Under the pieces are notes generated by a model, which saw only the letters and a list, made by a program, of their open reading frames with translations, ran no database searches and was not told where the DNA came from. Of a DNA stretch of 64,000 nt, positions 2,963 through 42,351 are shown piece by piece (position 1 is the stretch's first letter; each line of letters opens with the position of its first letter). The translations under genes and the position numbers were made by a program. Origin of the DNA: Gemmatimonadota bacterium (GTDB taxonomy: Bacteria; Gemmatimonadota; Gemmatimonadetes; Gemmatimonadales; GWC2-71-9); contig QHUT01000054.1 in NCBI GenBank assembly GCA_003222055.1, positions 15,022 through 79,021 on the forward strand, in the 5' to 3' direction.

Positions 2963-4066
2963 CTACCGCCCTGCCAGCACCTCGCGCACCACCCGCTCCG
3001 GTGCGGTCATCGTCCAGCTGCTGCCGTCGGCGTGCATGCGCCCCACCGCCTCCGGTAGCGCGAACCGCACCGTTCCGGCGCGTGCCTTCTTGTCGAGCTG
3101 CATCGTGGCGAGCAGGGCGTCCGCGGGCGCGCTCTTGGGGAGCTCGACCGGGAGACCGTAGCGCTCCAGCAGCTTGCGAATCCGATCGGCGGTTCCCGCT
3201 GCGGCGATCCCGAGCACCTCGGCGAGCCGCGCTTCGTACGCCATGCCGATCGCCACGGCCGCTCCGTGCAGCACGGCGAACTTGACGGTAGCCTCGACCG
3301 CGTGCGCCACGGTGTGACCGAAGTTGAGGATGGCGCGACGACCGGTCTCACGCTCGTCCGCGGCGACCACGCCCGCCTTGATTTCCACGGAGCGCCGCAC
3401 CAGCTGCTCGAGGGCGTCGGGTTGCCCGGTCGTCACGGCGTCGTGCTCGCGCTCCAGGAATGCGAAGTAGTCGGCGTCGGCGATCGCGGCGTGCTTGACC
3501 GCTTCGGCGACCCCCGCGGCGAGCTGCGGCGCCGGCAGGGTGCCGAGCAGGCCCAGGTCGGCCAGGACGAGCCGGGGTTGGTGAAAGGCACCCAGCAGGT
3601 TCTTGCCGGCGGGGACGTCGACACCCGTCTTGCCGCCGATCGACGAGTCGATCATCGCGAGCAGCGTCGTCGGTACCTGCACGTAGGGAACGCCCCGCAG
3701 GTAGGTGGCCGCGACGAACCCCGCCACGTCGCCCACGACGCCGCCGCCCAGCGCGATGACCCCGCAGTCGCGACCGAACTGACGCTGGAGCAGCCGATCC
3801 GAGAGGGACGCCCACGTTTCCCGCGTCTTGTTCGCTTCCCCTGCGGGAAACTCGAACAACTCCGCGTGCAACGTGGCGTCGTGGCATCGTGCCACGAGCT
3901 TCTTGCCGTACAGCGTCGCGACGTGCGAGTCGGTGATCACGGCGTAGCGGGCCGCGGGGCACGGGGCGTTCACCAAGGCGGGCAGATCCGCCAGCAGGCC
4001 GCGGCCGATCAGGATGTCGTACGAGGTGTTGCGCGGCTCTGCGATCGCGACGCGGATCGTCACCAC
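2963..4066 (-). CDS. aroB: 3-dehydroquinate synthase
   Basis: Contains GGGVVGDVAGFVAATYLRGVPYVQVPTTLLAMIDSSIGGKTGVD. The Arg-rich N-terminus of track ORF 2963..4213 overlaps the upstream gene and looks out of frame. The likely start is GTG 4066 or 4063 (GTGA overlap with the upstream stop). Confidence 0.85.
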   Translation of the reverse strand: MVTIRVAIAEPRNTSYDILIGRGLLADLPALVNAPCPAARYAVITDSHVATLYGKKLVARCHDATLHAELFEFPAGEANKTRETWASLSDRLLQRQFGRDCGVIALGGGVVGDVAGFVAATYLRGVPYVQVPTTLLAMIDSSIGGKTGVDVPAGKNLLGAFHQPRLVLADLGLLGTLPAPQLAAGVAEAVKHAAIADADYFAFLEREHDAVTTGQPDALEQLVRRSVEIKAGVVAADERETGRRAILNFGHTVAHAVEATVKFAVLHGAAVAIGMAYEARLAEVLGIAAAGTADRIRKLLERYGLPVELPKSAPADALLATMQLDKKARAGTVRFALPEAVGRMHADGSSWTMTAPERVVREVLAGR

Positions 4067-4611
4067 TTGACGTCGGGGCGCCCGGCGTGTGCGTTGGCGG
4101 CGCGCGCCAGGACGAACAGGAGATCCGACAGGCGGTTCAGATACCGCAGGATCGCGGGATTGATCTGCTCGTGGCGCGCCAGGGCGACGACGGCGCGCTC
4201 GGCCCGACGACACACCGTCCGCCCCAGGTGCAGGGCCGCGGCCTTGGGCGCTCCGCCCGGCAGGATGAAGTTCTTGAGCGGCTCGAGCCGCGATTCGTGA
4301 CCGTCAATGACATCCTCGAGCGCCGCGATGTCCGATTCGCCGATGGCCGCACCGCTCCGCGAGAGCGCTTTGTGCAGCTTGTCCGGATCGGGCGTCGCGA
4401 GCTCGGCCCCGACGGTGAACAGGTCGCGCTGGATAGTCTGGAGCAGCGAATCGGCGAACTCTGCGGGATCGAGTGTGCGTGCCAGCCCGAGCGCCGCGTT
4501 CAACTCATCCACCTCACCGTACGCCGCGACCCGGAGACTGTCTTTGGGCGTCCGCCCTCCACCAAACAGGCCCGTTTCCCCGCCGTCGCCGGTCTTGGTG
4601 TAGATCTTCAA
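4060..4611 (-). CDS. ATP:cob(I)alamin adenosyltransferase, PduO type
   Basis: MKIYTKTGDGGETGLFGGGRTPKDSLRVAAYGEVDELNAALG is a typical PduO/MMAB N-terminus. The start codon is TTG. Confidence 0.85.
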   Translation of the reverse strand: MKIYTKTGDGGETGLFGGGRTPKDSLRVAAYGEVDELNAALGLARTLDPAEFADSLLQTIQRDLFTVGAELATPDPDKLHKALSRSGAAIGESDIAALEDVIDGHESRLEPLKNFILPGGAPKAAALHLGRTVCRRAERAVVALARHEQINPAILRYLNRLSDLLFVLARAANAHAGRPDVKW

Positions 4612-5721: not shown

Positions 5722-7235
5722 ATCTGTACCACCACCGAGTCAATCTGGTTGAGCATCTGCTGATACGGCACCGCGTGCCCGTTCGCCTGGACGCTGAACG
5801 TGACGGTCCGGCCGTTGGGCTGCTCGATGTAGCCCGACAGGCTGTTGACGCGGTCGATGCTGCCGGTCTTGGCGATCACGCGGCCTTCCAGGGGCGTGCC
5901 GACGAAGCGCTTGAGGAGCGAGCCCGGTTGTCCCGCGTGCGGCAGCGCGGCGACGAACGCCGCTCCCTTGGGATGGCGATGCATGTAGGCGAGGAGCTGC
6001 GCGAACGCGTGCGGGGTGACCAGGTTGCCGGCCGCCAGCCCCGACCCGTCCTCCAGTGCGAACGCGGTCGAGTCGATCTTCACCGAATCGATCAGGAAAC
6101 GGCGCTCCACGTCGAGCCCCGCCGCCCAGCTGCCCTCTCCCTTGATTTCGCGACCCAGCACCTTGAGCAGCATCTCCGCGAACCAGTTCTGGCTGGTGTT
6201 GAGGATCGGGAAGAGGACGTCGGGCAGCGGTCGCCCGCGGTATTCGACGAGCGGGGAGCCGCAGCAGCGGGCGGCCCGATAGGCGAGTGAATCCGTGGTG
6301 CTGATCGCGCCGCCCGCCACCGCGACGCCCTTGCGCCCGAGCGACGTCGCCAGGGCCCGCGCGGCGTAGAGATTCGGGTCCGGGACCGCGACGCTCTCCA
6401 CCCCGGGCTTCCTGCCGAGCGCGACCGTTCCCTCGGCCCGGATGCCCCACCCCCCGCCGCTGCGGAAGAAGTTGTCTCCGATGGTCGACGTCGAGTCCGC
6501 GGCTACGGTGCGGGCGCGGTTTTCGAACGTGATGAGCCCCAGGTCGGGCGACCAGGTGATCACGGGGGGCGCGTCCACGCCCGGCCCGGGCGCGATGTGG
6601 AAGTCCACGCTGTTGTCGTGGAACCCGAGGCCGGACACCGGCGCCGCGTACCACCACGTCAGGTCCCACGCATTCCAGCTGTAGTGAATCAGGGTCGGCT
6701 CGAAATACGATCCGTCGCCCACCAGTTTCCCCGTGATGCGCCGGATGCCGCGGCCGCGCACGGAGTCGGCGATGGCGTCGACGGCGGTGAACGCCGAATC
6801 ACACGCCCCGGGCGCGAGCGTGTCGACGGAGAAGCACCGCTCGGACCAGGTGGGATCGCCCCGCCCGTAGAAGATCAGGTCACCGTACAGCACGCCGCTG
6901 TCCACCCGCCCGTTCACGTACAGGCTGGTGGTCACGCGGTAATCCACCGGCAGCAGCACCGCCGCGGCCGCGGTGACCACGAGCTTCGTGTTGCTCGCCG
7001 GCACGGAGAAGTGATCGGCGTTGCGTCGATACAGGACGCGGCCGCGATCGTCGACGACGTAGAGCCCCCACGTGGCGCGGTCGAACGGCGGGGCGTCGAT
7101 CAGCTGCGCCAGCCGGTGCTCCAGAGAGCCGCGCAACGCCGCGGTGCGCGGTCGCGCGGCGGAGGGAGGCGCGGGGGACGACTGCGCCGCCAGGCCCGAG
7201 CTAATCGTAAGCGATGCGAGGATCAGCTTTCGCAT
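5712..7235 (-). CDS. dacB: D-alanyl-D-alanine carboxypeptidase/endopeptidase, PBP4 (peptidase S13)
   Basis: Signal peptide MRKLILASLTISSGLAAQ. SxxK motif in PASNTKLV. KTG motif in IAKTGSIDRVNSLSGY. Confidence 0.85.
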   Translation of the reverse strand: MRKLILASLTISSGLAAQSSPAPPSAARPRTAALRGSLEHRLAQLIDAPPFDRATWGLYVVDDRGRVLYRRNADHFSVPASNTKLVVTAAAAVLLPVDYRVTTSLYVNGRVDSGVLYGDLIFYGRGDPTWSERCFSVDTLAPGACDSAFTAVDAIADSVRGRGIRRITGKLVGDGSYFEPTLIHYSWNAWDLTWWYAAPVSGLGFHDNSVDFHIAPGPGVDAPPVITWSPDLGLITFENRARTVAADSTSTIGDNFFRSGGGWGIRAEGTVALGRKPGVESVAVPDPNLYAARALATSLGRKGVAVAGGAISTTDSLAYRAARCCGSPLVEYRGRPLPDVLFPILNTSQNWFAEMLLKVLGREIKGEGSWAAGLDVERRFLIDSVKIDSTAFALEDGSGLAAGNLVTPHAFAQLLAYMHRHPKGAAFVAALPHAGQPGSLLKRFVGTPLEGRVIAKTGSIDRVNSLSGYIEQPNGRTVTFSVQANGHAVPYQQMLNQIDSVVVQIGR

Positions 7236-35534: not shown

Positions 35535-36727
35535 GCGGATCCCGATCGCAGGTAGCGGCGGCGCCAGGCATCGGCCCACGGGCCGAAGGCGTTCCGCCGG
35601 ATCGCGGCCCGCATGTCCTGCGCGAGCCGGATCAGGTAGCGGACGTTGTGCAGCGACAACAGTCTCAGGCCCAGCAGCTCTTCCGCTACGAACAGGTGCC
35701 GGAGGTACCCCCGCGAGAACGTGGTGCACGCCTCGCAGTCGCACGAGTCGTCGAGCGGCCGCGGGTCCTCGCGGTGCTCGGCGTTGCGAATGTTCACGGG
35801 GCCGTCGGGCGTGAAGGCCGAGCCGTTTCGCCCGTTGCGCGTCGGCGCCACGCAGTCGAACAGATCCAGCCCGCGCTCCACCGCCGCCACCAGGTCCTCG
35901 GGAAACCCCACGCCCATAAGATAACGCGGCAGGGCGGGGGGGAGCCGCGGCTCGAGCGCGTCGAGCATCGCGTACATCGCCGCCTTGGGCTCGCCGACCG
36001 AGAGGCCGCCGATCGCGAGACCGGTCCAGTCGCGCATGTCGCAGATCCGGCGCAGTCCTTCCTCCCGCAGCGCGAGATGGACGCCGCCCTGGAGAATGGG
36101 CCACAAGGTCTGGTTGCACGACGCTACGACGCCACGTTGCAAGGAGTGCCCGGCGTCAGTCGTGGAACGTGGCGTCGTAGCGTCGTGTGACGCTTTCAGT
36201 TCCTCATGCCGCTTCCGGCACCGCTCCAACCATCTCAGCGTTCGCTCGAGGGCGTCCCTGGCCGCGCTCTCGTCCGCGCCCCCGGGGACCACGTGGTCGA
36301 ACGCCATCGCGACGTCGGCGCCCAGGGTCCACTGGATCTCCGTGGCGCGCTCGGGCGTGAGCCGGCGACGGCCGCCGTCCACGTGGCTCTGGAACTCGAC
36401 GCCGTCGTCGTCCACGCGCCGGAAGCCCTCGAGCGAGAATACCTGGAAGCCGCCCGAGTCCGTGAGCAGCGGTCGATCCCAGCCCATGAAGCGGTGCAGC
36501 GCGCCGAGCGTCGCCACCACCTCCTCGCCCGGGCGCACGTGCAGGTGATAGGTGTTCGCGAGCACGAGCGTCGCGCCCGCGGCGCGGAGGTCGTTGGGCG
36601 AAAGCGCCCGCACGGTGCCTTGAGTCCCGACCGGCATGAAGACCGGCGTTTCGACGCTACCGTGCGGGAGGGTGAGGGTGCCGGCGCGGGCGGGGCCGGA
36701 GGTCGCGTCGACCTTGAACTCGAACAC
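35531..36727 (-). CDS. tgt: Queuine tRNA-ribosyltransferase (tRNA-guanine transglycosylase)
   Basis: The start GTG 36727 gives (M)FEFKVDATSGPARAGTL, which aligns with E. coli MKFELDTTDGRARRGRL. Also LTDSGGFQVFSL, GLAIGGLSVGE and CDCEAC. The ~25-aa loop HDATTPRSTTDAGHSLQRGVVAS is encoded by palindrome B1. The track ORF N-terminus (to 36811) runs through repeat A2 and is rejected. Confidence 0.92.
   Translation of the reverse strand: MFEFKVDATSGPARAGTLTLPHGSVETPVFMPVGTQGTVRALSPNDLRAAGATLVLANTYHLHVRPGEEVVATLGALHRFMGWDRPLLTDSGGFQVFSLEGFRRVDDDGVEFQSHVDGGRRRLTPERATEIQWTLGADVAMAFDHVVPGGADESAARDALERTLRWLERCRKRHEELKASHDATTPRSTTDAGHSLQRGVVASCNQTLWPILQGGVHLALREEGLRRICDMRDWTGLAIGGLSVGEPKAAMYAMLDALEPRLPPALPRYLMGVGFPEDLVAAVERGLDLFDCVAPTRNGRNGSAFTPDGPVNIRNAEHREDPRPLDDSCDCEACTTFSRGYLRHLFVAEELLGLRLLSLHNVRYLIRLAQDMRAAIRRNAFGPWADAWRRRYLRSGSA
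36117..36187. repeat. Octamer-array palindromic element, family B (CACGACGC/GCGTCGTG), copy B1, inside tgt
   Basis: Perfect 22-bp inverted repeat: CACGACGCTACGACGCCACGTT (36117..36138) and AACGTGGCGTCGTAGCGTCGTG (36166..36187), with a 27-nt loop. Confidence 0.95.
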
Positions 36728-36734
36728 GGGCGTT

Positions 36735-36812
36735 ATTGCGGATTGCGGATTTCGGATTGCGGATTCGAAAGTCGGGCGTCCAATCCGCAATCCACAATCC
36801 GCAATCCGCAAT
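36735..36812. repeat. Heptamer-array palindromic element, family A, copy A2
   Basis: Left arm ATTGCGGATTGCGGATTTCGGATTGCGGATT (36735..36765). Loop CGAAAGTCGGGCGTCC. Right arm AATCCGCAATCCACAATCCGCAATCCGCAAT (36782..36812). 29 of 31 positions are complementary. It fills the queA-tgt gap. Confidence 0.95.
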
Positions 36813-37864
36813 CAGAGTACCGCCATTGCATCCCCATACGAGTAAAACCGGTATCCCTCCCTTACCGCTTCCCCGTACGCCCGCATGACGTTGTCATAGC
36901 CCCCGAACGCGCACACCAACATTAGCAGGGTCGAGCGCGGCAGGTGGAAGTTCGTGAGCAGCCGGTCGACCGCGCGGAACGAGTACGGGGGGTGAATGAA
37001 GAGCCGGGTCTCGCCGGCGCCCGGAGCGATGCGGCCGCGCTCGCCGGCAAGCGTTTCGAGCGTGCGCACGACCGTGGTCCCGACCGCCCAGACGCGACCT
37101 CCCGCTTCCCGTCGCTCGTTGATGATCCCGGCCGCGCTGTCGCTCACCCGGTACGGCTCGTCGTGCATCGCATGGCGCGCGAGGTCGTCGGTCTCGACCG
37201 GCTTGAAGGTGCCGGGGCCGACGTGCAGGTCCACTTCCGCGAGCGCCACGCCCTTGTCGCGCAGCCGGTCCAACAGGTCGCGCGTGAAATGCAATCCGGC
37301 CGTGGGAGCGGCGACGCTGCCGTCGTGTGCCGCGTACACCGTCTGGTAGCGCTCGCGATCCTCGGGGCGCGGCGCGCGGCGGATGTAGGGCGGCAGTGGC
37401 ACCTCGCCGTACTTGGCGAGCGTGGCCGGGGCGTCGAGCGCGCCGACGAACCGCACCCGGCGGAGGCCGCCTCCCAACGCCTCGACGATCTCCGCGGTGC
37501 TGTCGGGGCCGAACGTCACGCGGCGTCCCGACTTGAGCTTGCCTCCGGGATGCCCCATGGCGAGCCAGGTCCCATCGGGTAGCTCCCGGACGAGCAAGAG
37601 TTCGGCCTTGCCGCCGGACCCGCCCATCCCGCTTCCCGCAAGCCGCATCCCGTGCAGTCTCGCCGGAATCACGCGTGACACGTTGACGACGAGCACGTCC
37701 TCCGGCGCCACCAGATCGACGACGTCGACGAACCGCCCGTGGCGGATCGCCCCGCTGGCGCGATCGAGCACCAGGAGGCGACTCCCGCCCCGATCGGGGA
37801 GCGGGTCTTGGGCGATCTGCTCGGCTGGCAGACTGTAGTCGAAGTCTGAAGTTCGGTAGAGCAC
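36812..37864 (-). CDS. queA: S-adenosylmethionine:tRNA ribosyltransferase-isomerase
   Basis: The start GTG 37864 gives (M)LYRTSDFDYSLPAEQIAQDPL, which aligns with E. coli MRVTDFSFELPESLIAHYP. Also TRVIPARL-like VSRVIPARL, AAPTAGLHFT and FRFYSYGDAM. The track ORF N-terminus runs through repeat A3. Confidence 0.92.
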   Translation of the reverse strand: MLYRTSDFDYSLPAEQIAQDPLPDRGGSRLLVLDRASGAIRHGRFVDVVDLVAPEDVLVVNVSRVIPARLHGMRLAGSGMGGSGGKAELLLVRELPDGTWLAMGHPGGKLKSGRRVTFGPDSTAEIVEALGGGLRRVRFVGALDAPATLAKYGEVPLPPYIRRAPRPEDRERYQTVYAAHDGSVAAPTAGLHFTRDLLDRLRDKGVALAEVDLHVGPGTFKPVETDDLARHAMHDEPYRVSDSAAGIINERREAGGRVWAVGTTVVRTLETLAGERGRIAPGAGETRLFIHPPYSFRAVDRLLTNFHLPRSTLLMLVCAFGGYDNVMRAYGEAVREGYRFYSYGDAMAVL

Positions 37865-37870
37865 GCCGAG

Positions 37871-37952
37871 AATTGCGGATGGCGGATTTCGGATTGCGGA
37901 TTCGAAGGTCGTGGGTCCAATCCGCAATCCGCACTCCACAATCCGCAATCCG
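37871..37952. repeat. Heptamer-array palindromic element, family A, copy A3
   Basis: AATTGCGGATGGCGGATTTCGGATTGCGGATT, loop CGAAGGTCGTGGGTCC, then AATCCGCAATCCGCACTCCACAATCCGCAATCCG. It fills the ruvB-queA gap. Confidence 0.95.
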
Positions 37953-37954
37953 TG

Positions 37955-38995
37955 TTAGCCGTCAAACATCGTCGGCTGGTCCGCGCTTCGGGGCGGCGTG
38001 AAGCCGAAATGCTTGTACGCGCCTGCCGTGGCGCAGCGGCCGCGCGGCGTGCGCGCCAGGAACCCCTGCTGCATCAGGAACGGCTCGTACACTTCTTCGA
38101 GCGTGCCGGCGTCCTCCCCCACGGCGGCGGCGATGGTGGTGAGTCCCACCGGGCCCCCGTCGAACTGCTCGATGATCGTCTTGAGGATACGCCCGTCCAT
38201 GTCGTCGAGACCGAACTCGTCTACGTCCAGGCGTTGGAGGGCCTCCCCCGCTACCTGCGCCGTGATCTTGCCGCCGGCGCGCACCTGGGCGTAGTCGCGG
38301 ACCCGCTTCAGCAGCCGGTTCGCGACGCGGGGCGTCCCGCGACTGCGGCGGGCGATTTCGGCGATGCCTGCGACGTCCGCGGGGACGCCCAGGATCCCGG
38401 CCGAGCGGCTGATGATCTGCGCCAGGTCGTCCGGCGGATAGTAGGAGAGGCGCTCTACCAGCCCGAAGCGCGCGCGCATCGGCGGCGTCAGCAGGCCGAA
38501 TCGGGTGGTCGCCCCGATCAGCGTGAACCGCTCGAGCGCCATCGGAATGGTCTGCGCGTGCGGACCCTCGGCGACGCGGACGTCGACCCGGTAGTCCTCC
38601 ATCGCGGGGTAGAGGAATTCCTCGAGCGCCGGGCGCAGGCGGTGCACTTCGTCGATGAACAGGATGTCGTTCGCCTGGAGCGACGTGAGCAGGCCCACCA
38701 GGTCTCCCGGCCGCTCGAGCACCGGGCCCGAGGTCGTGCGGACGCTCACGCCCAGCTCCTTCGCCATGAGCAGCGCGAGGGTCGTTTTGCCGAGTCCCGG
38801 GGGCCCGAAGAACAGCGTGTGGTCGAGGGGCTCCCGCCGCTGCTTCGCTGCGTCGATGGCGATTTGGAGCGACTCCTTCACCTTCGCCTGGCCGACGAAC
38901 TCGTCCAGCCCCGACGGCCGCAGCGCGGCGTCGGTGAGCCGCTCGTCGGGCAGGGCGTCCGGCGTGGTGACCTGGGTCCGCGCGCGCGTGCTCAC
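37955..38995 (-). CDS. ruvB: Holliday junction branch migration helicase RuvB
   Basis: [19 protein letters not shown]...[14 protein letters not shown]...IDEVHRL. The start GTG 38995 forms a GTGA overlap with the small ORF stop. The Arg-rich extension to 39154 is judged off-frame. Confidence 0.92.
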
Positions 38996-39177
38996 GCCGC
39001 CTTGTTCCCCAGGGGCCGCGCGCGCCACCGCACCGGTCGCGCGTCGGCTTCGAGCGCATGCCTGGTGTGGCAGGCGACGCACTCGTCCGTGGCGCGCGTC
39101 GCGCCGTCGGGCACGAGGAGCCGGTTGGTCGAGCCGCAGCGTGTGCAGATCCACTCAGCGGTGAGGGCCATGGTCAT
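38992..39177 (-). CDS. Small zinc-ribbon protein (CxxC...CxxC), 61 aa, between ruvA and ruvB
   Basis: [40 protein letters not shown]... Its ATG overlaps the ruvA stop (ATGA) and its TGA overlaps the ruvB GTG (GTGA). Nearly all third codon positions are G/C in this frame. Confidence 0.65.
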
Positions 39178-39779
39178 CCTTTGGTGAGCAGTTGCAGGGC
39201 GCGCCGCACCAGCGTCTCCGGGTCGACACCGCTTCCACCGTCCGCGGCGAGCACGTGGCGCAACGCGCGGTCGGCCTCGACGGTCGCGTACCCGAGCCGC
39301 TCGAGTGCGTGGAGCGCCGCTTCTGCCGCCCCCGCCGCTCCTCCCGCCACCATCGCTCCCCCCGCTTCCTCAAACTCGCCGAGCTTGTCGGCCAGTTCAA
39401 GCGCCAGCCGCTCGGCCGTCTTCTTCCCGATCCCGCTCACCGACGCGAGCAACGCGATGTTCCGCTCCTTCACCGCCCGCGCCCCACGCTCCACCCCCAG
39501 GGCGGACATCAAGGCGATCGCGATCTTCGGCCCCACGCCGCTCACGCCGATGAGCCGCTGGAAGAAGCGGCGGCCGGCGTCGTCGTGAAACCCGTAGAGC
39601 GACCAGCCGTCCTCGCGCACCACCAGCTCGGTGGCGAGGGTGACCGTCTCGCCCACCGCGGGCAGTCGCTCCATCACGCCCAGCGGCACCACGATCTCGT
39701 AGCCGACGCCGCCCGCGGTGTGGATCAGGACGCGGTCCGCCTGCTTGGCGGCGAGGCGCCCGGCGACCTGAGCGATCAC
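39174..39779 (-). CDS. ruvA: Holliday junction DNA-binding protein RuvA
   Basis: MIAQVAGRLAAKQADRVLIHTAGGVGYEIVVP...LIGVSGVGPKIALALM-like...GIGKKTAERL. Confidence 0.92.
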   Translation of the reverse strand: MIAQVAGRLAAKQADRVLIHTAGGVGYEIVVPLGVMERLPAVGETVTLATELVVREDGWSLYGFHDDAGRRFFQRLIGVSGVGPKIAIALMSALGVERGARAVKERNIALLASVSGIGKKTAERLALELADKLGEFEEAGGAMVAGGAAGAAEAALHALERLGYATVEADRALRHVLAADGGSGVDPETLVRRALQLLTKG

Positions 39780-40270
39780 GTCCGCAGGATGTGGGTGAGC
39801 GCCACGGCCACGCCGTCGGCCGCGTCGGCGGGTCGGGGGGCCTCTTTGAGCCGCAACAGCCGGGCGACCACGCTGCCGATCTGCGCCTTCGGGGCCCCGC
39901 CCGCCCCCGCCACCGTTTTCTTGACCGTCGCCGGCGGATACTGCGCGATGGCGAGGCCCGCCTGCTCGGCGGCGAGCAGGATGACGCCCCGGGCGTGCCC
40001 GAGGACCAGCGTGGTATGGACGTTCTTCGCGTAGAAGGCGTTCTCCAGCGCCAGCGTGCCGGGGCGATGCCGCGCGATCAGGCCGGTGATGTGCTCATGG
40101 AGGGCGCGCAGCCGCTCGGGGAGGGGGCTCTTGGCGGCGAAGCGGATCACGCCACACTCGATCAGCCGGGCCACCCGGTCCGGCCGGTCCCGTGCGGAGC
40201 CGCCGTTCCCGGTCTCGATCACGCCATAGCCGGTGACCGCCGTGCCCGGGTCGACGCCCAGGACCTTCAC
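39776..40270 (-). CDS. ruvC: Crossover junction endodeoxyribonuclease RuvC
   Basis: MKVLGVDPGTAVTGYGVIE...ALENAFYAKN...ADAADGVAVAL. Confidence 0.92.
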   Translation of the reverse strand: MKVLGVDPGTAVTGYGVIETGNGGSARDRPDRVARLIECGVIRFAAKSPLPERLRALHEHITGLIARHRPGTLALENAFYAKNVHTTLVLGHARGVILLAAEQAGLAIAQYPPATVKKTVAGAGGAPKAQIGSVVARLLRLKEAPRPADAADGVAVALTHILRT

Positions 40271-40271
40271 G

Positions 40272-41021
40272 TCACGCCGTCGCCGCCGCCAGCGCCTCGG
40301 CGTCGATGTCGAAGTTGGATGACACCTTGGCGACGTCGTCCATTTCTTCGAGCGCGTCGATCAGCGAGAGCAGCTGCTTCGCGTCCCTGCCGTCCACCTT
40401 CACGGTGCTCTTGGGGAGCAGCGCGATCTCGGCGGCCTGTACCGCGATTTTCTTCGCCTTGAGCCGCTCGCTGATCAGATGCAGCCGGCCCGCGGGTCCG
40501 GTGATGAGAAACACCTCGCCCTCGCGCACCATGTCTTCCGCGCCGGCATCGAGCGCCGCCTCCATCACCGCGTCCTCGTCGGCACGCGTCGCGTCCACGG
40601 TGATCTGGGCCTTGCGGTCGAACATCCACGCCACCGAGTTCGCGGCACCGAGGTTGCCGCCGTGGCGCTGGAACACGTGGCGAATCTCCGCGACGGTGCG
40701 GTTGGCGTTGTCCGTGGTCGCTTCGATGAGCAGCGCCGCGCCGCCGGGACCGTACCCCTCGTAGGTGACCTCTTCGTAGGTCACGCCTTCGAGCTCGCCG
40801 GTCCCCTTCTTGACGGCGCGCTCGATATTGTCGAGCGGCATGTTCTCCGCCTTGGCGGCGTCGATGGCGGTGCGGAGCCGGGCGTTGCCCGCGGGATCGC
40901 CGCCGCCCTGCTTGGCGGCGATCGTGATCTCGCGGATCAGCTTGGTGAAGAGCGCGCCCCGCCGCGCGTCGGTGACGGCCTTCTTCCGCTTGATCTGTTT
41001 CCACTTACTGTGGCCGGCCAT
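40272..41021 (-). CDS. YebC/PmpR family DNA-binding transcriptional regulator
   Basis: MAGHSKWKQIKRKKAVTDARRGALFTKLIREITIAAKQGGGDPAGNARLR. Confidence 0.92.
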   Translation of the reverse strand: MAGHSKWKQIKRKKAVTDARRGALFTKLIREITIAAKQGGGDPAGNARLRTAIDAAKAENMPLDNIERAVKKGTGELEGVTYEEVTYEGYGPGGAALLIEATTDNANRTVAEIRHVFQRHGGNLGAANSVAWMFDRKAQITVDATRADEDAVMEAALDAGAEDMVREGEVFLITGPAGRLHLISERLKAKKIAVQAAEIALLPKSTVKVDGRDAKQLLSLIDALEEMDDVAKVSSNFDIDAEALAAATA

Positions 41022-41039
41022 GGCCCTAACCTACACGTT

Positions 41040-41930
41040 TCACCGATCCGGGTCGAGCATATCCTCGAACCGCATCCAGCGTCGATAGAAGTACAGGTCG
41101 ACGAAGCCGGTCGGCCCGTTGCGGTTCTTGAGCACGATCAATTCCGTGGCGCCGTCCACGCCGTAGCCCGGGTTGTACATCTCCTCCCGGTACAGCCCGA
41201 GCACCAGATCGGCGTGCTGCTTGATCGCGCCCAGGTGTCCGAAGTCGTCGAGCGCGGGCCTGGCGTTGGGGCGCTTGGCGTCGAACCGGGGCAGCTGCGA
41301 CACCACGACGAGCGCCACCTGGCGCTCGAGCGCCAGCGCCTTGAGCCGCTGCAGCACCAGCGCCAGGTCCTCGTCCTGCGTCGAGCGGGCCACACCCGAA
41401 GGCGACGGCACGAGCTGCAGGTAGTCCACGATCACGAGACCCAGCGGTGGCAGGGGCTCGAGCCGCCGGGCGACGGACTCGAAATCCGGGGCCGCGAGGG
41501 ACAGCGTGGTGAGCGGGAGGTCGCGCAGCCGCACGGCCGCACCGCCGATGCCGGCGCGCGTCTCGTCGTTGAGCTTGGCGCCGCGCAGCTCGTCCACGGC
41601 CACCCGCCCCTCGATCGCGAGCGCGCGCTCCATGAGGCGCTCTTGGTCCATCTCTCCCGAGAACAGCGCGACCGCGGTGCCGCGCTGCGCCACGCGCAGG
41701 GCCAGTCCCAGCGCGAGCGCCGACTTGCCGGAGCCGATGTCGCCTCCCAGCACCACGAGGTCGCGGCGACGCACCCCACCCCCCAACAGCCGGTCGATGG
41801 ACGGGAAGCCCGTGGGGATCGTGTCGCTCGGGACGTCGCCCGGGCGCTGCTGATCCACCCGCGCGACGAGGGACTCGGGTGAGGGTGAAGAGGACTGGGA
41901 CAGGCGTTTCGGGAACCGACGGCTCGGCAT
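41040..41930 (-). CDS. DnaB-helicase C-terminal (RecA-fold) domain protein lacking the N-terminal domain, about 296 aa
   Basis: PTGFPSIDRLLGGGVRRRDLVVLGGDIGSGKSALALGLAL (Walker A), LVIVDYLQLV (Walker B), VVVSQLPR, ADLVLGLYREEMY and LKNRNGPTGFVDLYF. The start is ATG 41930. The track ORF extension to 42005 crosses repeat E. Confidence 0.75.
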   Translation of the reverse strand: MPSRRFPKRLSQSSSPSPESLVARVDQQRPGDVPSDTIPTGFPSIDRLLGGGVRRRDLVVLGGDIGSGKSALALGLALRVAQRGTAVALFSGEMDQERLMERALAIEGRVAVDELRGAKLNDETRAGIGGAAVRLRDLPLTTLSLAAPDFESVARRLEPLPPLGLVIVDYLQLVPSPSGVARSTQDEDLALVLQRLKALALERQVALVVVSQLPRFDAKRPNARPALDDFGHLGAIKQHADLVLGLYREEMYNPGYGVDGATELIVLKNRNGPTGFVDLYFYRRWMRFEDMLDPDR

Positions 41931-41943
41931 GACGGCCCCTCCT

Positions 41944-41989
41944 GTGCGTCTGTGCGTCTGTGCGTCTAGCCTACTATAGATGTAGACGC
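41944..41989. repeat. (GTGCGTCT)x3 octamer array ending in a 7-bp hairpin
   Basis: GTGCGTCTGTGCGTCTGTGCGTCT at 41944..41967. GCGTCTA (41962..41968) pairs with TAGACGC (41983..41989). The GCGTCT core is the same as in element 1675..1790. Confidence 0.85.
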
Positions 41990-42351
41990 GCCGAGCGCGC
42001 TGCAACCGCGATGGCGTCGCCCGCCTCGGCGCCGAGCACCTCGCGGGCCGGCGCGACCAGCTGGGAGAGGACCATCGCGGCGGCGGCGGGTGTGGCGGGC
42101 TCGAGCTGCTGGCGCGCCGCGGCCAGCGCCCGCCGCAGCGGCCCCGACAGGGCGAGGCTCGTGAGGCGGGCCTCGAGGGCTTGGAGCCGGCGACGGTGGT
42201 TCCTCCCCGTCACGGGGTGCGGCGGCAGCAGCGCCTCGGCGCAGCGCACGACCAGCCAGAGCGCGAACAGGTCCTGGCGCGCGGGTCCGCGGACGGCGTC
42301 GGCCACGAGACCGATCAACCGCTCTTCCGCCGGCGTGGTGGCGCGGCTCAC
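41974..42351 (-). CDS. Hypothetical protein, about 125 aa
   Basis: GTG 42351 forms a GTGA overlap with the GT9 stop. G/C-rich third positions. The upstream Arg-rich part of track ORF 41974..42864 is rejected. I recognise no family. Confidence 0.45.
   Translation of the reverse strand: MSRATTPAEERLIGLVADAVRGPARQDLFALWLVVRCAEALLPPHPVTGRNHRRRLQALEARLTSLALSGPLRRALAAARQQLEPATPAAAAMVLSQLVAPAREVLGAEAGDAIAVAARSARLHL

Follow-up and report, generated by a model that had tools for sequence, protein, structure and literature searches.

Few DNA-repair machines have been studied as thoroughly as RuvABC, whose three proteins are taken to make up the complete machine. The ruv genes are arranged in canonical operons with the order ruvA-ruvB in E. 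coli and yebC-ruvC-ruvA-ruvB(-queA-tgt) in many bacteria. To our knowledge, RuvAB functions in all studied bacteria without a subunit of the kind described below, and we know of no intervening gene in any ruvAB pair.

We analyzed a 64,000-nucleotide stretch of Gemmatimonadota DNA, hereafter called the window, in which an open reading frame of 61 codons, designated X, lies between ruvA and ruvB on the minus strand (yebC-ruvC-ruvA-X-ruvB-queA). This locus shares with the canonical operons the gene order, the canonical domains of RuvC, RuvA and RuvB, and the tight overlaps between stop and start codons of successive cistrons, but differs in the extra cistron, which was present in 90/90 Gemmatimonadota loci. 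The first-pass annotation of the window had named no canonical ruvAB operon known to contain an intervening gene. Our searches agreed with this, as they returned no curated family for X and, in the literature searched, no description of an intervening gene or a zinc-ribbon partner of any ruvAB pair. The X protein belongs to a previously undescribed family, and the operon that contains it is a ruv variant that is likewise new. A fourth, strictly co-located micro-protein that is strongly conserved across a phylum would be a candidate accessory factor worth testing.

Organization of the ruv locus and the junctions of X

The conserved block begins with yebC (40272..41021), a member of the TACO1/YebC family (Pfam Transcrip_reg, 1.2e-54; TACO1_YebC_N, 1.8e-32), which was located 5' of ruvC in all related loci long enough to display it. 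The stop codon of ruvC (39776..40270; Pfam RuvC, 2.5e-41) overlaps the GTG start codon of ruvA as GTGA. ruvA (39174..39779) encodes a canonical three-domain protein of 201 aa (Pfam RuvA_N, HHH_5 and RuvA_C), and its residues 1-196 are collinear with P. aeruginosa RuvA (7x7q_A, E 2.4e-37). ruvB (37955..38995) encodes 346 aa (Pfam RuvB_N, 1.2e-71, AAA_lid_4 and RuvB_C; PDB 7x7q_M, E 2.3e-124). The block ends with queA (36812..37948), encoding S-adenosylmethionine:tRNA ribosyltransferase-isomerase (Pfam Queuosine_synth, 3.1e-124); the Pfam match opens at residue 33 of the longest open reading frame, which leaves the start of queA uncertain. queA was located 3' of ruvB in most related loci, and a TPR-repeat gene occupied this position in L088-L090. 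No second copy of X was detected in a search of the 64-kb window, and the window gave no Rfam matches. A scan of positions 36500-41500 gave no promoter-like or terminator-like sites within ruvC-ruvA-X-ruvB, and its single terminator-like match was inside queA. An RNA element or regulatory signal in place of X, or within it, was rejected on these results.

The longest form of X (38992..39177) encodes 61 aa. Its ATG (39177-39175) overlaps the ruvA TGA (39176-39174) as ATGA, and its TGA (38994-38992) overlaps the GTG start codon of ruvB (38995-38993) as GTGA. Both overlaps had been claimed before and were read directly in the sequence. To examine the start codon of X, we compared 80 related loci. 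The overlapping start was present in 63/80 loci, and 74/80 had an ATG located 3-14 nt past the first base of the ruvA stop codon, at exactly +5 in 57 of them. The downstream ATG occurred alone in 17/80 loci, and the overlapping start alone in 6/80; in some of the 17, the overlapping start is impossible because the ruvA stop codon is TAA. The window has its downstream ATG at 39171, 2 nt beyond the ruvA stop codon, preceded at a distance of 5 nt by a Shine-Dalgarno-like AGGA (39177..39180) in the final ruvA codons. GGA or GGG recurs at this position in most related loci, and we infer that AGGA is the putative Shine-Dalgarno sequence of X. Given this ATG and its spacing from AGGA, the X protein is probably 59 aa. 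Thus, the overlapping ATG of the first-pass annotation exists, but the second ATG is most probably the conserved one, which gives a likely coding sequence of 59 aa (38992-39171, MALTAEW...).

X is packed closely on ruvA in every relative: its start was at most 14 nt from the ruvA stop codon in 80/80 loci, with a spacer of at most 11 nt. The junction with ruvB was more variable. A 4-nt overlap was found in 37/80 relatives and a gap of at most 16 nt in most others, while 11/80 had a spacer of 34-138 nt, which in 8 cases contained a repeat element. Because this element parts X from ruvB in 8 relatives, coupling to RuvB at a fixed stoichiometry is non-essential. The overlaps and the lack of promoter-like and terminator-like sites suggest that X is co-transcribed and translationally coupled. 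It would probably be transcribed within a polycistronic yebC-ruvC-ruvA-X-ruvB-queA unit, and translation would most likely start at the ATG 2 nt beyond the ruvA stop codon, using the AGGA inside ruvA. As the X stop codon overlaps the ruvB GTG, ribosomes may be able to run from ruvA through X to ruvB. The translational coupling proposed earlier is therefore allowed by the tight packing; coupling to ruvB is not obligatory, given the spacers in the 11 relatives.

Coding evidence and distribution of X

An open frame of 61 codons is uninformative by itself, since the DNA is 70.7% GC, and conservation decides. The X frame has a GC3 of 0.903, in line with the earlier remark that nearly all third codon positions are G or C; the values for ruvA, ruvB and ruvC are 0.896, 0.919 and 0.933, respectively. 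We compared the three reading frames in 81 sequences. The dN/dS ratio was 0.20 in the X frame versus about 2 in both other frames, which were interrupted by stop codons in 30/81 and 43/81 sequences. An ungapped core of 45 residues was present in 81/81 sequences, and the open reading frame was retained in a 57%-GC genome, where long open reading frames are rare by chance. X is under purifying selection. Almost certainly, it is a genuine gene, as had been proposed, and a conserved one that belongs to a new family; the homologous clusters, the synteny in 90/90 loci and the dN/dS ratio of 0.20 all speak against an off-frame artefact.

A search with the single sequence detected 278 protein clusters (90% identity), and a search with the family profile detected at least 1,265. 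A scan of genome contigs, which demands exact motif patterns and therefore gives a lower bound, found X in at least 305 species-level genomes. Every named source is a member of Gemmatimonadota, and the family has so far been seen in this phylum only. We examined the gene neighborhood in 90 loci, comprising 80 species loci, 6 divergent family members and 4 loci reached via RuvB. The order ruvA-X-ruvB, for which the first-pass annotation had suggested a synteny check, was kept in all of them (80/80, 6/6 and 4/4), including 57%-GC genomes and loci in which gene callers had missed X. The extra cistron was 52-62 codons long across the Gemmatimonadota loci examined, and RuvA identity falls to 60% across the sampled divergence. 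No relative devoid of X turned up when loci were approached via RuvB of the most divergent lineage that carries X. X was never found away from ruvA and ruvB in the 90 loci, and no paralogues or homologues in other contexts were detected in protein-cluster and HMM searches. X would have become established at the ruvA-ruvB junction early in the evolution of Gemmatimonadota.

When 1.84 billion representatives were searched exhaustively with an HMM, 41 matches were obtained, nearly all of which were members of the X family or frameshift chimeras with RuvA or RuvB. The long database proteins that resemble X-RuvA or X-RuvB domain fusions (P0141, P0144, P0149, P0158 and P0159) were frameshifted or chimeric gene calls with Arg-rich off-frame stretches, and no true fusion was found among them. 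P0152 and similar candidates were unrelated repeat proteins. In public annotations, X is mislabelled ('RPC12/RpoP' or 'SIR2') or uncalled; in 2/4 loci reached via RuvB, no gene was called in the ruvA-ruvB gap. With at least 1,265 clusters and no Pfam or NCBIfam model, the family merits a model. As a clean case of a taxonomically restricted small gene inside a universal operon, X is of use to small-protein annotation and to studies of gene origin.

Two readings deny the X peptide a function of its own or make it secondary. RuvB could instead start at GTG 39154 with an extension of 53 residues, the 61-codon frame being a chance open reading frame. The RuvB frame is indeed open back to 39154 in the window, and it is open for at least 50 codons in 37/79 relatives, which is common at about 70% GC. 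However, in 35/79 loci the frame stays open no further than 30 codons from the consensus start, and it is the one that has stop codons in 43/81 sequences and a dN/dS of about 2. Its GC3 is 0.66 compared with 0.92 in ruvB proper, and 13 of its 53 residues are Arg, which bears out the earlier description of the extension as Arg-rich. The Pfam RuvB_N match begins no earlier than residue 78 of the long form, whereas the 346-aa form from GTG 38995 can be aligned one to one with solved RuvB proteins from position 17 onward (its residue 17 pairs with the same residue of P. aeruginosa RuvB, 352 aa, 7x7q). RuvB starts at GTG 38995 (38993..38995), not at 39154, with the normal N-terminal length of the solved protein, as the first-pass annotation held, and we consider the extended form extremely improbable. 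A second reading is that the act of translation matters, delivering ribosomes to the ruvB GTG or setting the RuvA:RuvB ratio, and that the peptide is secondary. The stop and start signals that overlap or abut on both sides of X in the window and in many relatives would suit such a role, as would the weak GTG start of ruvB in the window. Strong selection on the amino acid sequence (dN/dS 0.20) is unexpected for a mere spacer, as are ten invariant residues over 82 diverse members and a confidently predicted globular fold. Moreover, the X frame is intact in the 11 loci in which 34-138 nt separate it from ruvB, so that this role appears very unlikely, albeit less so than a chance open reading frame.

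Motif, predicted fold and comparison with known families

The X product of about 59 aa has a molecular mass of 6.5 kDa and a pI of about 9. The two CxxC pairs described earlier were checked on the translation and are located at C11/C14 and C33/C36 (61-aa numbering). Family members share the pattern E-W-x-C-x2-C-x3-N-R...D-x-C-x2-C...W, and ten residues, among them two Trp and all four Cys, are invariant in 82 diverse sequences. In alignments A1, A2 and A3, the first knuckle (W9-I-C11-T-R-C14-G-S-T-N18, 39124..39153) contains invariant E, W, C, C, N and R. The second knuckle (D31-E-C33-V-A-C36-H-T-R-H40, 39058..39087) contains invariant D, C and C, and H40 is nearly invariant. In the same alignments, the C-terminal motif R47-P-V-R-W51 (39025..39039) ends with the invariant W51. 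The residues past W51-R-A are variable and dispensable; in L041, P0029, P0043 and P0116, the frame reads through past RPVRWRA into a repeat element, which takes the place of the usual tail.

Two AlphaFold models (pLDDT 86.8 and 89.9) showed a five-stranded Cys4 zinc ribbon. In both models the CxxC pairs are at the hairpin turns between strands 1 and 2 and between strands 3 and 4, as in a zinc ribbon, and the two knuckles at these turns, C11-x2-C14 and C33-x2-C36, did not vary among the 82 sequences. The two beta-hairpin knuckles (W-x-C-x2-C-x3-N-R and D-x-C-x2-C) would chelate one metal ion, presumably zinc, and the fifth strand (RPVRW) would pack its invariant Trp onto the sheet. The invariant Cys pairs and the models thus support the Cys4 zinc ribbon put forward in the first-pass annotation as the predicted fold, metal binding being a prediction.

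We searched Pfam-A 2025, NCBIfam 20.0 and PDB sequences with the single protein and three profiles and found no above-cut-off match to a curated family. The best sub-threshold scores were 17.5 bits in Pfam (cut-off 25.6) and 15.5 bits in NCBIfam (cut-off 32). The best PDB profile match was to the zinc-ribbon repeats of trypanosomal mitoribosomal mS66, with an E of 1.6e-4 split over two weak stretches. A Foldseek search of the PDB with the two models gave nothing at E 0.001 or better; the best matches, none significant, were LysW and archaeal ribosomal zinc ribbons. Many members are named RPC12/RpoP in IMG. The Pfam Zn_ribbon_RPAB4 match (E 0.056) reached 13.6 bits, short of the cut-off of 24, and we know of no RpoP subunit in bacteria; the name is a generic zinc-ribbon label.

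RanBP2/NZF fingers (PF00641 Zn_ribbon_RanBP and PF16988 Vps36-NZF-N) resemble X in that both are small and all-beta with four Cys ligands, and the first knuckle of X carries the invariant W-x-C-x2-C-x3-N. Vps36-NZF-N matched 6/20 X members (best E 4.9e-4, 15.9-16.4 bits versus a gathering cut-off of 27), and Zn_ribbon_RanBP matched 2/20 (best E 0.0021, below the gathering cut-off). Weak PDB profile matches included the TAB2 NZF and the RBM10 RanBP2 finger. However, X departs from the signature W-x-C-x(2,4)-C-x3-N-x6-C-x2-C, because its spacing from N to C is 14, not 6, in all members, and it has an additional conserved C-terminal strand (RPVRW). NZF/RanBP2 fingers are essentially eukaryotic modules inside larger proteins and are not free-standing bacterial proteins.

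The LysW/ArgW amino-group carrier proteins (about 54 aa; 3wwl, 3wwn_B, 5eio_C and 3vpb_E), with a similar size and a zinc-ribbon core, were the best structural matches (TM 0.6-0.67, Foldseek probability up to 0.91, identity 19-24%), although the E values of 0.4-1.2 were not significant. The acidic C-terminal tail of LysW is the site of substrate attachment. This EDWGE-type tail ending in Glu is absent from X, whose tails are variable and basic or neutral (for example, ...RPLGNKAA, ...RARPAGS and ...NARLDD). The neighbors of X were ruvA and ruvB in 90/90 loci, not the lysX/Y/Z/J/K genes of a lysine or arginine (AAA pathway) cluster. X was therefore rejected as a LysW/ArgW carrier, the likeness being confined to the fold.

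Possible relation of X to RuvAB

Our preferred reading, with a probability of roughly 0.4, is that the RuvAB branch-migration machine has in X an accessory or regulatory partner that is specific to this lineage and co-translated with it. The protein would be synthesized in concert with RuvA and RuvB, and its mode of action would be protein-protein contact. A more specific and tentative form of this proposal is that X is an extra subunit or regulator of RuvAB(C), invented once in Gemmatimonadota, that binds RuvA or RuvB and tunes loading, hexamer assembly or branch migration. If true, a lineage-restricted gene has been integrated into a universal repair complex. YacG, a zinc-finger inhibitor of DNA gyrase of roughly 65 aa, regulates a DNA-dependent ATPase by direct binding. 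It is likewise a free-standing bacterial Cys4 zinc micro-protein and offers a precedent for the proposed mechanism by analogy only, as the Pfam scan gave no PF03884 match to X at E<=1 and the genomic contexts differ.

Other roles have to be set against a partnership with RuvAB. The four Cys might coordinate iron or haem instead of a structural zinc, which would make X a rubredoxin-like or cytochrome-like electron carrier. Sub-threshold matches to NCBIfam rubre_like_arch (E 0.01), Pfam Paired_CXXCH_1 (E 0.05) and PDB rubredoxins (E 0.03-1) point in this direction, as does C33-V-A-C36-H37 in the window protein. However, every rubredoxin or CXXCH match was far under the curated cut-offs, and CXXCH is no family feature, because many members have R, G or K in place of H37. 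X has neither a signal peptide nor an N-terminal hydrophobic signal, and covalent haem attachment by the Ccm pathway needs a signal peptide. With a predicted zinc-ribbon topology as well, and with zinc proteins as the best fold matches, a redox or iron protein seems improbable. A far more serious alternative, a possibility short of even odds, is a real zinc-ribbon protein whose function is unrelated to Holliday junctions and which entered or originated at the ruvA-ruvB junction in an early Gemmatimonadota ancestor and has been inherited there since. Such a protein could be a micro-protein that binds nucleic acids or proteins, or its role could relate to the block's genes for translation and tRNA (yebC, queA and tgt). 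The genes yebC and queA, with tgt beyond, match X in synteny. Because the yebC-ruvC-ruvA-X-ruvB-queA block, including the non-recombination genes yebC and queA, is equally conserved, position alone shows no functional link, and vertical inheritance of the six-gene operon would be expected to keep X in place anyway. RuvA and RuvB in the window are canonical in length and domain order, and therefore nothing in them hints at a missing function for X to supply. The similarities of X lean the same way: the W-x-C-x2-C-x3-N of its first knuckle belongs to generic protein- or RNA-binding modules, with sub-threshold matches; the weak profile match is to mS66 (E 1.6e-4); and no recombination protein is among its best fold matches, which are LysW and archaeal ribosomal zinc ribbons. 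On the other hand, an unrelated gene is expected to move or vanish occasionally over a divergence in which RuvA identity goes down to 60%, whereas X was never apart from ruvA and ruvB in 90 loci, had no paralogues or homologues in any other context, and was packed on ruvA in all 80 loci.

A weak pointer to RuvAB is that the searches made found X nowhere outside the ruvAB pair and detected no paralogues. We also compared the evolution of the proteins encoded in the block. The mean distances of X, RuvC and RuvA were 0.29, 0.29 and 0.34, respectively, indicating that X evolves at an equal pace. In a mirror-tree analysis of X with the five neighbouring genes, which gave a small signal from non-independent pairs, the distance matrix of X was closest to that of RuvA (r 0.65, partial r 0.31). 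The partial r values with RuvB, QueA and YebC were -0.09, 0.21 and 0.16, respectively, those for QueA and YebC being positive too. RuvA has a slight edge over RuvB as the putative partner of X.

The ruv block of the window and the start of RuvB

Six genes, yebC to queA, are arranged head to tail on the minus strand of the window, whose GC content is 70.7%: yebC (40272–41021), ruvC (39776–40270), ruvA (39174–39779), a 61-codon ORF designated X (38992–39177), ruvB (37955–38995; 346 aa) and queA (36812–37948). The end of ruvA reads …ACC AAA GGA TGA CC ATG GCC… on the minus strand. The first ATG of X overlaps the ruvA stop codon (ATGA), and a second ATG lies 2 nt past this stop, preceded by AGGA at a distance of 5 nt. 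Where X meets ruvB (…AAG GCG GCG TGA GCA CGC…), the TGA of X overlaps the GTG that opens the 346-aa RuvB (GTGA). The first-pass annotation had described both overlaps, the two CxxC pairs and the predominance of G/C at third codon positions; all were found again here, with Cys at residues 11, 14, 33 and 36 (61-aa numbering) and a GC3 of 0.903 in the X frame versus 0.66 in the other two frames.

A RuvB start at 39154 had been named as the alternative that would speak against X. The resulting 53-residue extension is indeed Arg-rich, as stated then (13 Arg), and it fails on four counts. The codon bias of its frame is that of non-coding DNA, and in 35 of 79 relatives this frame does not stay open for 30 codons from the consensus start. 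The match to Pfam RuvB_N covers the long form only from residue 78 onward, and residue 17 of the 346-aa RuvB aligns with residue 17 of P. aeruginosa RuvB.

A scan of 36500–41500 detected no promoter-like or terminator-like sequence inside ruvC-ruvA-X-ruvB; its single terminator-like match fell within queA, and Rfam gave no match in the window. We infer that the block is co-transcribed. X would be expressed from the ruv polycistron, with ribosomes passed from ruvA to X and often onward to ruvB. The longest queA ORF opens with TTG just 7 nt past the ruvB stop; its Pfam Queuosine_synth match starts at residue 33, after 32 residues of low-complexity appearance, and queA translation therefore probably begins at a later codon.

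Conservation of X as a coding sequence

Since 61 open codons are not significant alone in DNA this GC-rich, we relied on comparative evidence. A protein search with X returned 278 clusters at E ≤0.01 with identities up to 95%, all named ones from Gemmatimonadales MAGs, and 1,265 clusters (90% identity) were matched by a profile of divergent members. Exhaustive searching of 1.84 billion 50%-identity representatives with an HMM gave only 41 matches, nearly all of which were the X family or its frameshift chimeras with RuvA or RuvB. When one genome per GTDB species was scanned, X was found in at least 305 species, a lower bound as the scan demanded exact peptide patterns; the best 80 of these were all Gemmatimonadota. 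The 45-residue core (AEW…RW) aligns without gaps across the window and these 80 loci, and column entropy at the first, second and third codon positions is 0.42, 0.41 and 0.97, respectively. Nei-Gojobori dN/dS was 0.20 in the X frame (81 sequences) and approximately 2 in the other two frames, which contain stop codons in 30 and 43 of the 81 sequences. X is also kept in a complete 3.17-Mb chromosome (CP070792.1, locus L087), where the locus has only 57% GC. By these sequence comparisons, X encodes a protein and is under purifying selection, and the probability that it is not a gene is negligible.

The order yebC-ruvC-ruvA-X-ruvB-queA was observed in 80 of 80 species loci, as far as the contigs extend (tblastn with the six window proteins). 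Six divergent members, including database protein P0156 (~35% identical), likewise lie between ruvA and ruvB. To avoid selection on X, RuvB of the most divergent lineage was used as the query and four long contigs were opened; all four carry X. No gene is called there in L087 or in a second such locus, L089 (JADFNB010000013.1), and the ruvA-ruvB 'intergenic gap' of 157–160 nt is the intact X ORF (2340–2504 and 2337–2501, respectively). The synteny check proposed in the first-pass annotation thus placed X between ruvA and ruvB in 90 of 90 loci, a sample outside which cultured Gemmatimonas and other classes of the phylum fall, and absence from close relatives was not found. Two different ruvA-X-ruvB loci occur on separate contigs of one MAG (JBOHSI010000021.1 and JBOHSI010000235.1), more likely through strain mixture or bin contamination than true duplication.

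Public entries name X 'hypothetical protein' or 'zinc ribbon domain-containing protein', or use generic or misleading names ('RPC12/RpoP', 'SIR2 family protein deacetylase'). Five database proteins of 150–400 aa (P0141, P0144, P0149, P0158 and P0159) could pass for domain fusions; they were rejected as frameshifted or chimeric gene calls that join RuvA, X and RuvB through Arg-rich off-frame stretches.

Start site, coupling to ruvB and a palindromic repeat

An ATG lies 3–14 nt past the first base of the ruvA stop in 74 of the 80 loci (exactly +5 in 57 of them), and an overlapping start is present in 63. The downstream ATG occurs alone in 17 loci, including those with TAA ruvA stops and with X in another frame relative to ruvA, and the overlapping one alone in six. 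Because of these counts, the conserved start is most likely the second ATG of the window (39171), predicting a 59-aa protein; the overlap reported in the first-pass annotation exists, but its ATG is the less likely conserved start.

X overlaps ruvB by 4 nt in 37 of the 80 loci, and most others have gaps of 2–16 nt. Spacers of 34–138 nt separate the two genes in 11 loci, and eight of these spacers consist of a palindromic repeat (85–110 nt) with multiple hairpins; coupling of X to ruvB is therefore common but not obligatory. The copies lie at 4187–4304 (L002), 3773–3890 (L003), 4190–4324 (L010), 4187–4294 (L016), 4181–4286 (L028), 4183–4286 (L037, with a second copy elsewhere at 6482–6567), 4180–4285 (L044) and 4191–4285 (L069) of the respective ruv loci, with the pattern …CCCAGGCTGAAGCCTGGGCTCGGC…GTGCTGAAGCAC…TGTCCTTCAGGACA…GCCGAGC·CACCCTTCAGGGTGGGA. 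In locus L041 (4154–4236) and in database proteins P0029, P0043 and P0116, the repeat replaces the C-terminal tail of X past RPVRWRA, indicating that residues beyond W51-R-A are dispensable. The repeat looks like a REP/MITE-type element of the Gemmatimonadales lineage; nhmmer found no copy in the window.

Predicted fold and possible role of X

Among 82 diverse members, E8, W9, C11, C14, N18, R19, D31, C33, C36 and W51 are invariant, and T6, A7, T12, G15, T17, L21, V22, H40 and R47-P-V-R50 nearly so. The AlphaFold2 model is confident and all-beta (pLDDT 86.8 with 27 sequences, 89.9 with 82), with five strands, the fifth being RPVRW. Both CxxC pairs sit at hairpin turns, in agreement with the zinc ribbon proposed in the first-pass annotation and predicting a classic fold of this type. 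Foldseek gave no significant PDB match; its best matches were LysW carrier proteins (TM 0.6–0.67, E 0.4–1.2) and other zinc ribbons, but X lacks both the defining acidic tail and the gene context of LysW. The first knuckle, W-x-C-x2-C-x3-N, is the first half of the RanBP2/NZF signature, whereas the second knuckle follows after 14 residues instead of the 6 of that signature. This half signature accounts for the recurrent sub-threshold Pfam matches (Vps36-NZF-N in 6 and Zn_ribbon_RanBP in 2 of 20 members) and the weak PDB profile matches to TAB2 NZF, RBM10 and mS66 zinc-ribbon repeats. X is not covered by any family of Pfam, NCBIfam or PDB, and no match scored as high as a curated cut-off. A haem site is unlikely, because the C-x-x-C-H seen in the window is not a general property of the family and no signal peptide is present.

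X thus belongs to the zinc-ribbon fold class outside any curated family, constituting a new small zinc-ribbon family and, among otherwise ordinary ruv genes, a new operon architecture. We know of no described ruv operon with an extra cistron between ruvA and ruvB, and literature searches, consistent with the first-pass annotation, turned up no intervening gene.

We tentatively suggest, with a probability of about 40%, that X may be an accessory or regulatory partner of RuvAB. Its confinement to the ruvA-ruvB junction in the loci and searches made, without paralogues, its start never more than 14 nt from the ruvA stop in 80 loci, its evolutionary rate, equal to that of RuvA and RuvC, and its mirror-tree distances, which fit best with RuvA (partial r 0.31), favour a partner. 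This mirror-tree signal is weak, however, with QueA reaching 0.21 (RuvB, −0.09); yebC and queA are equally syntenic yet are not recombination genes, RuvA and RuvB of the window are perfectly canonical, and no real fusion of X with either was found. It is also quite possible, if less so, that X is a passenger protein unrelated to RuvAB. We consider a role as a rubredoxin-like metal or redox protein improbable; this reading concerns metal identity and is compatible with the other explanations. That X acts purely as a coupling spacer is more improbable still. X is firmly established as a gene and is undescribed, and partnership with RuvAB is directly testable, in a lineage that is poorly tractable experimentally.

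The gene immediately preceding yebC, in the same orientation (41040–42005), encodes a 321-aa DnaB_C/AAA_25 ATPase (RecA-superfamily, KaiC-like), which stands alone without the DnaB N-terminal domain (Pfam DnaB_C, 1.9e-51). As a same-domain gene precedes yebC in three related loci (L086, L087 and L089), the proximity of this ATPase gene to the ruv block may be conserved in this lineage.
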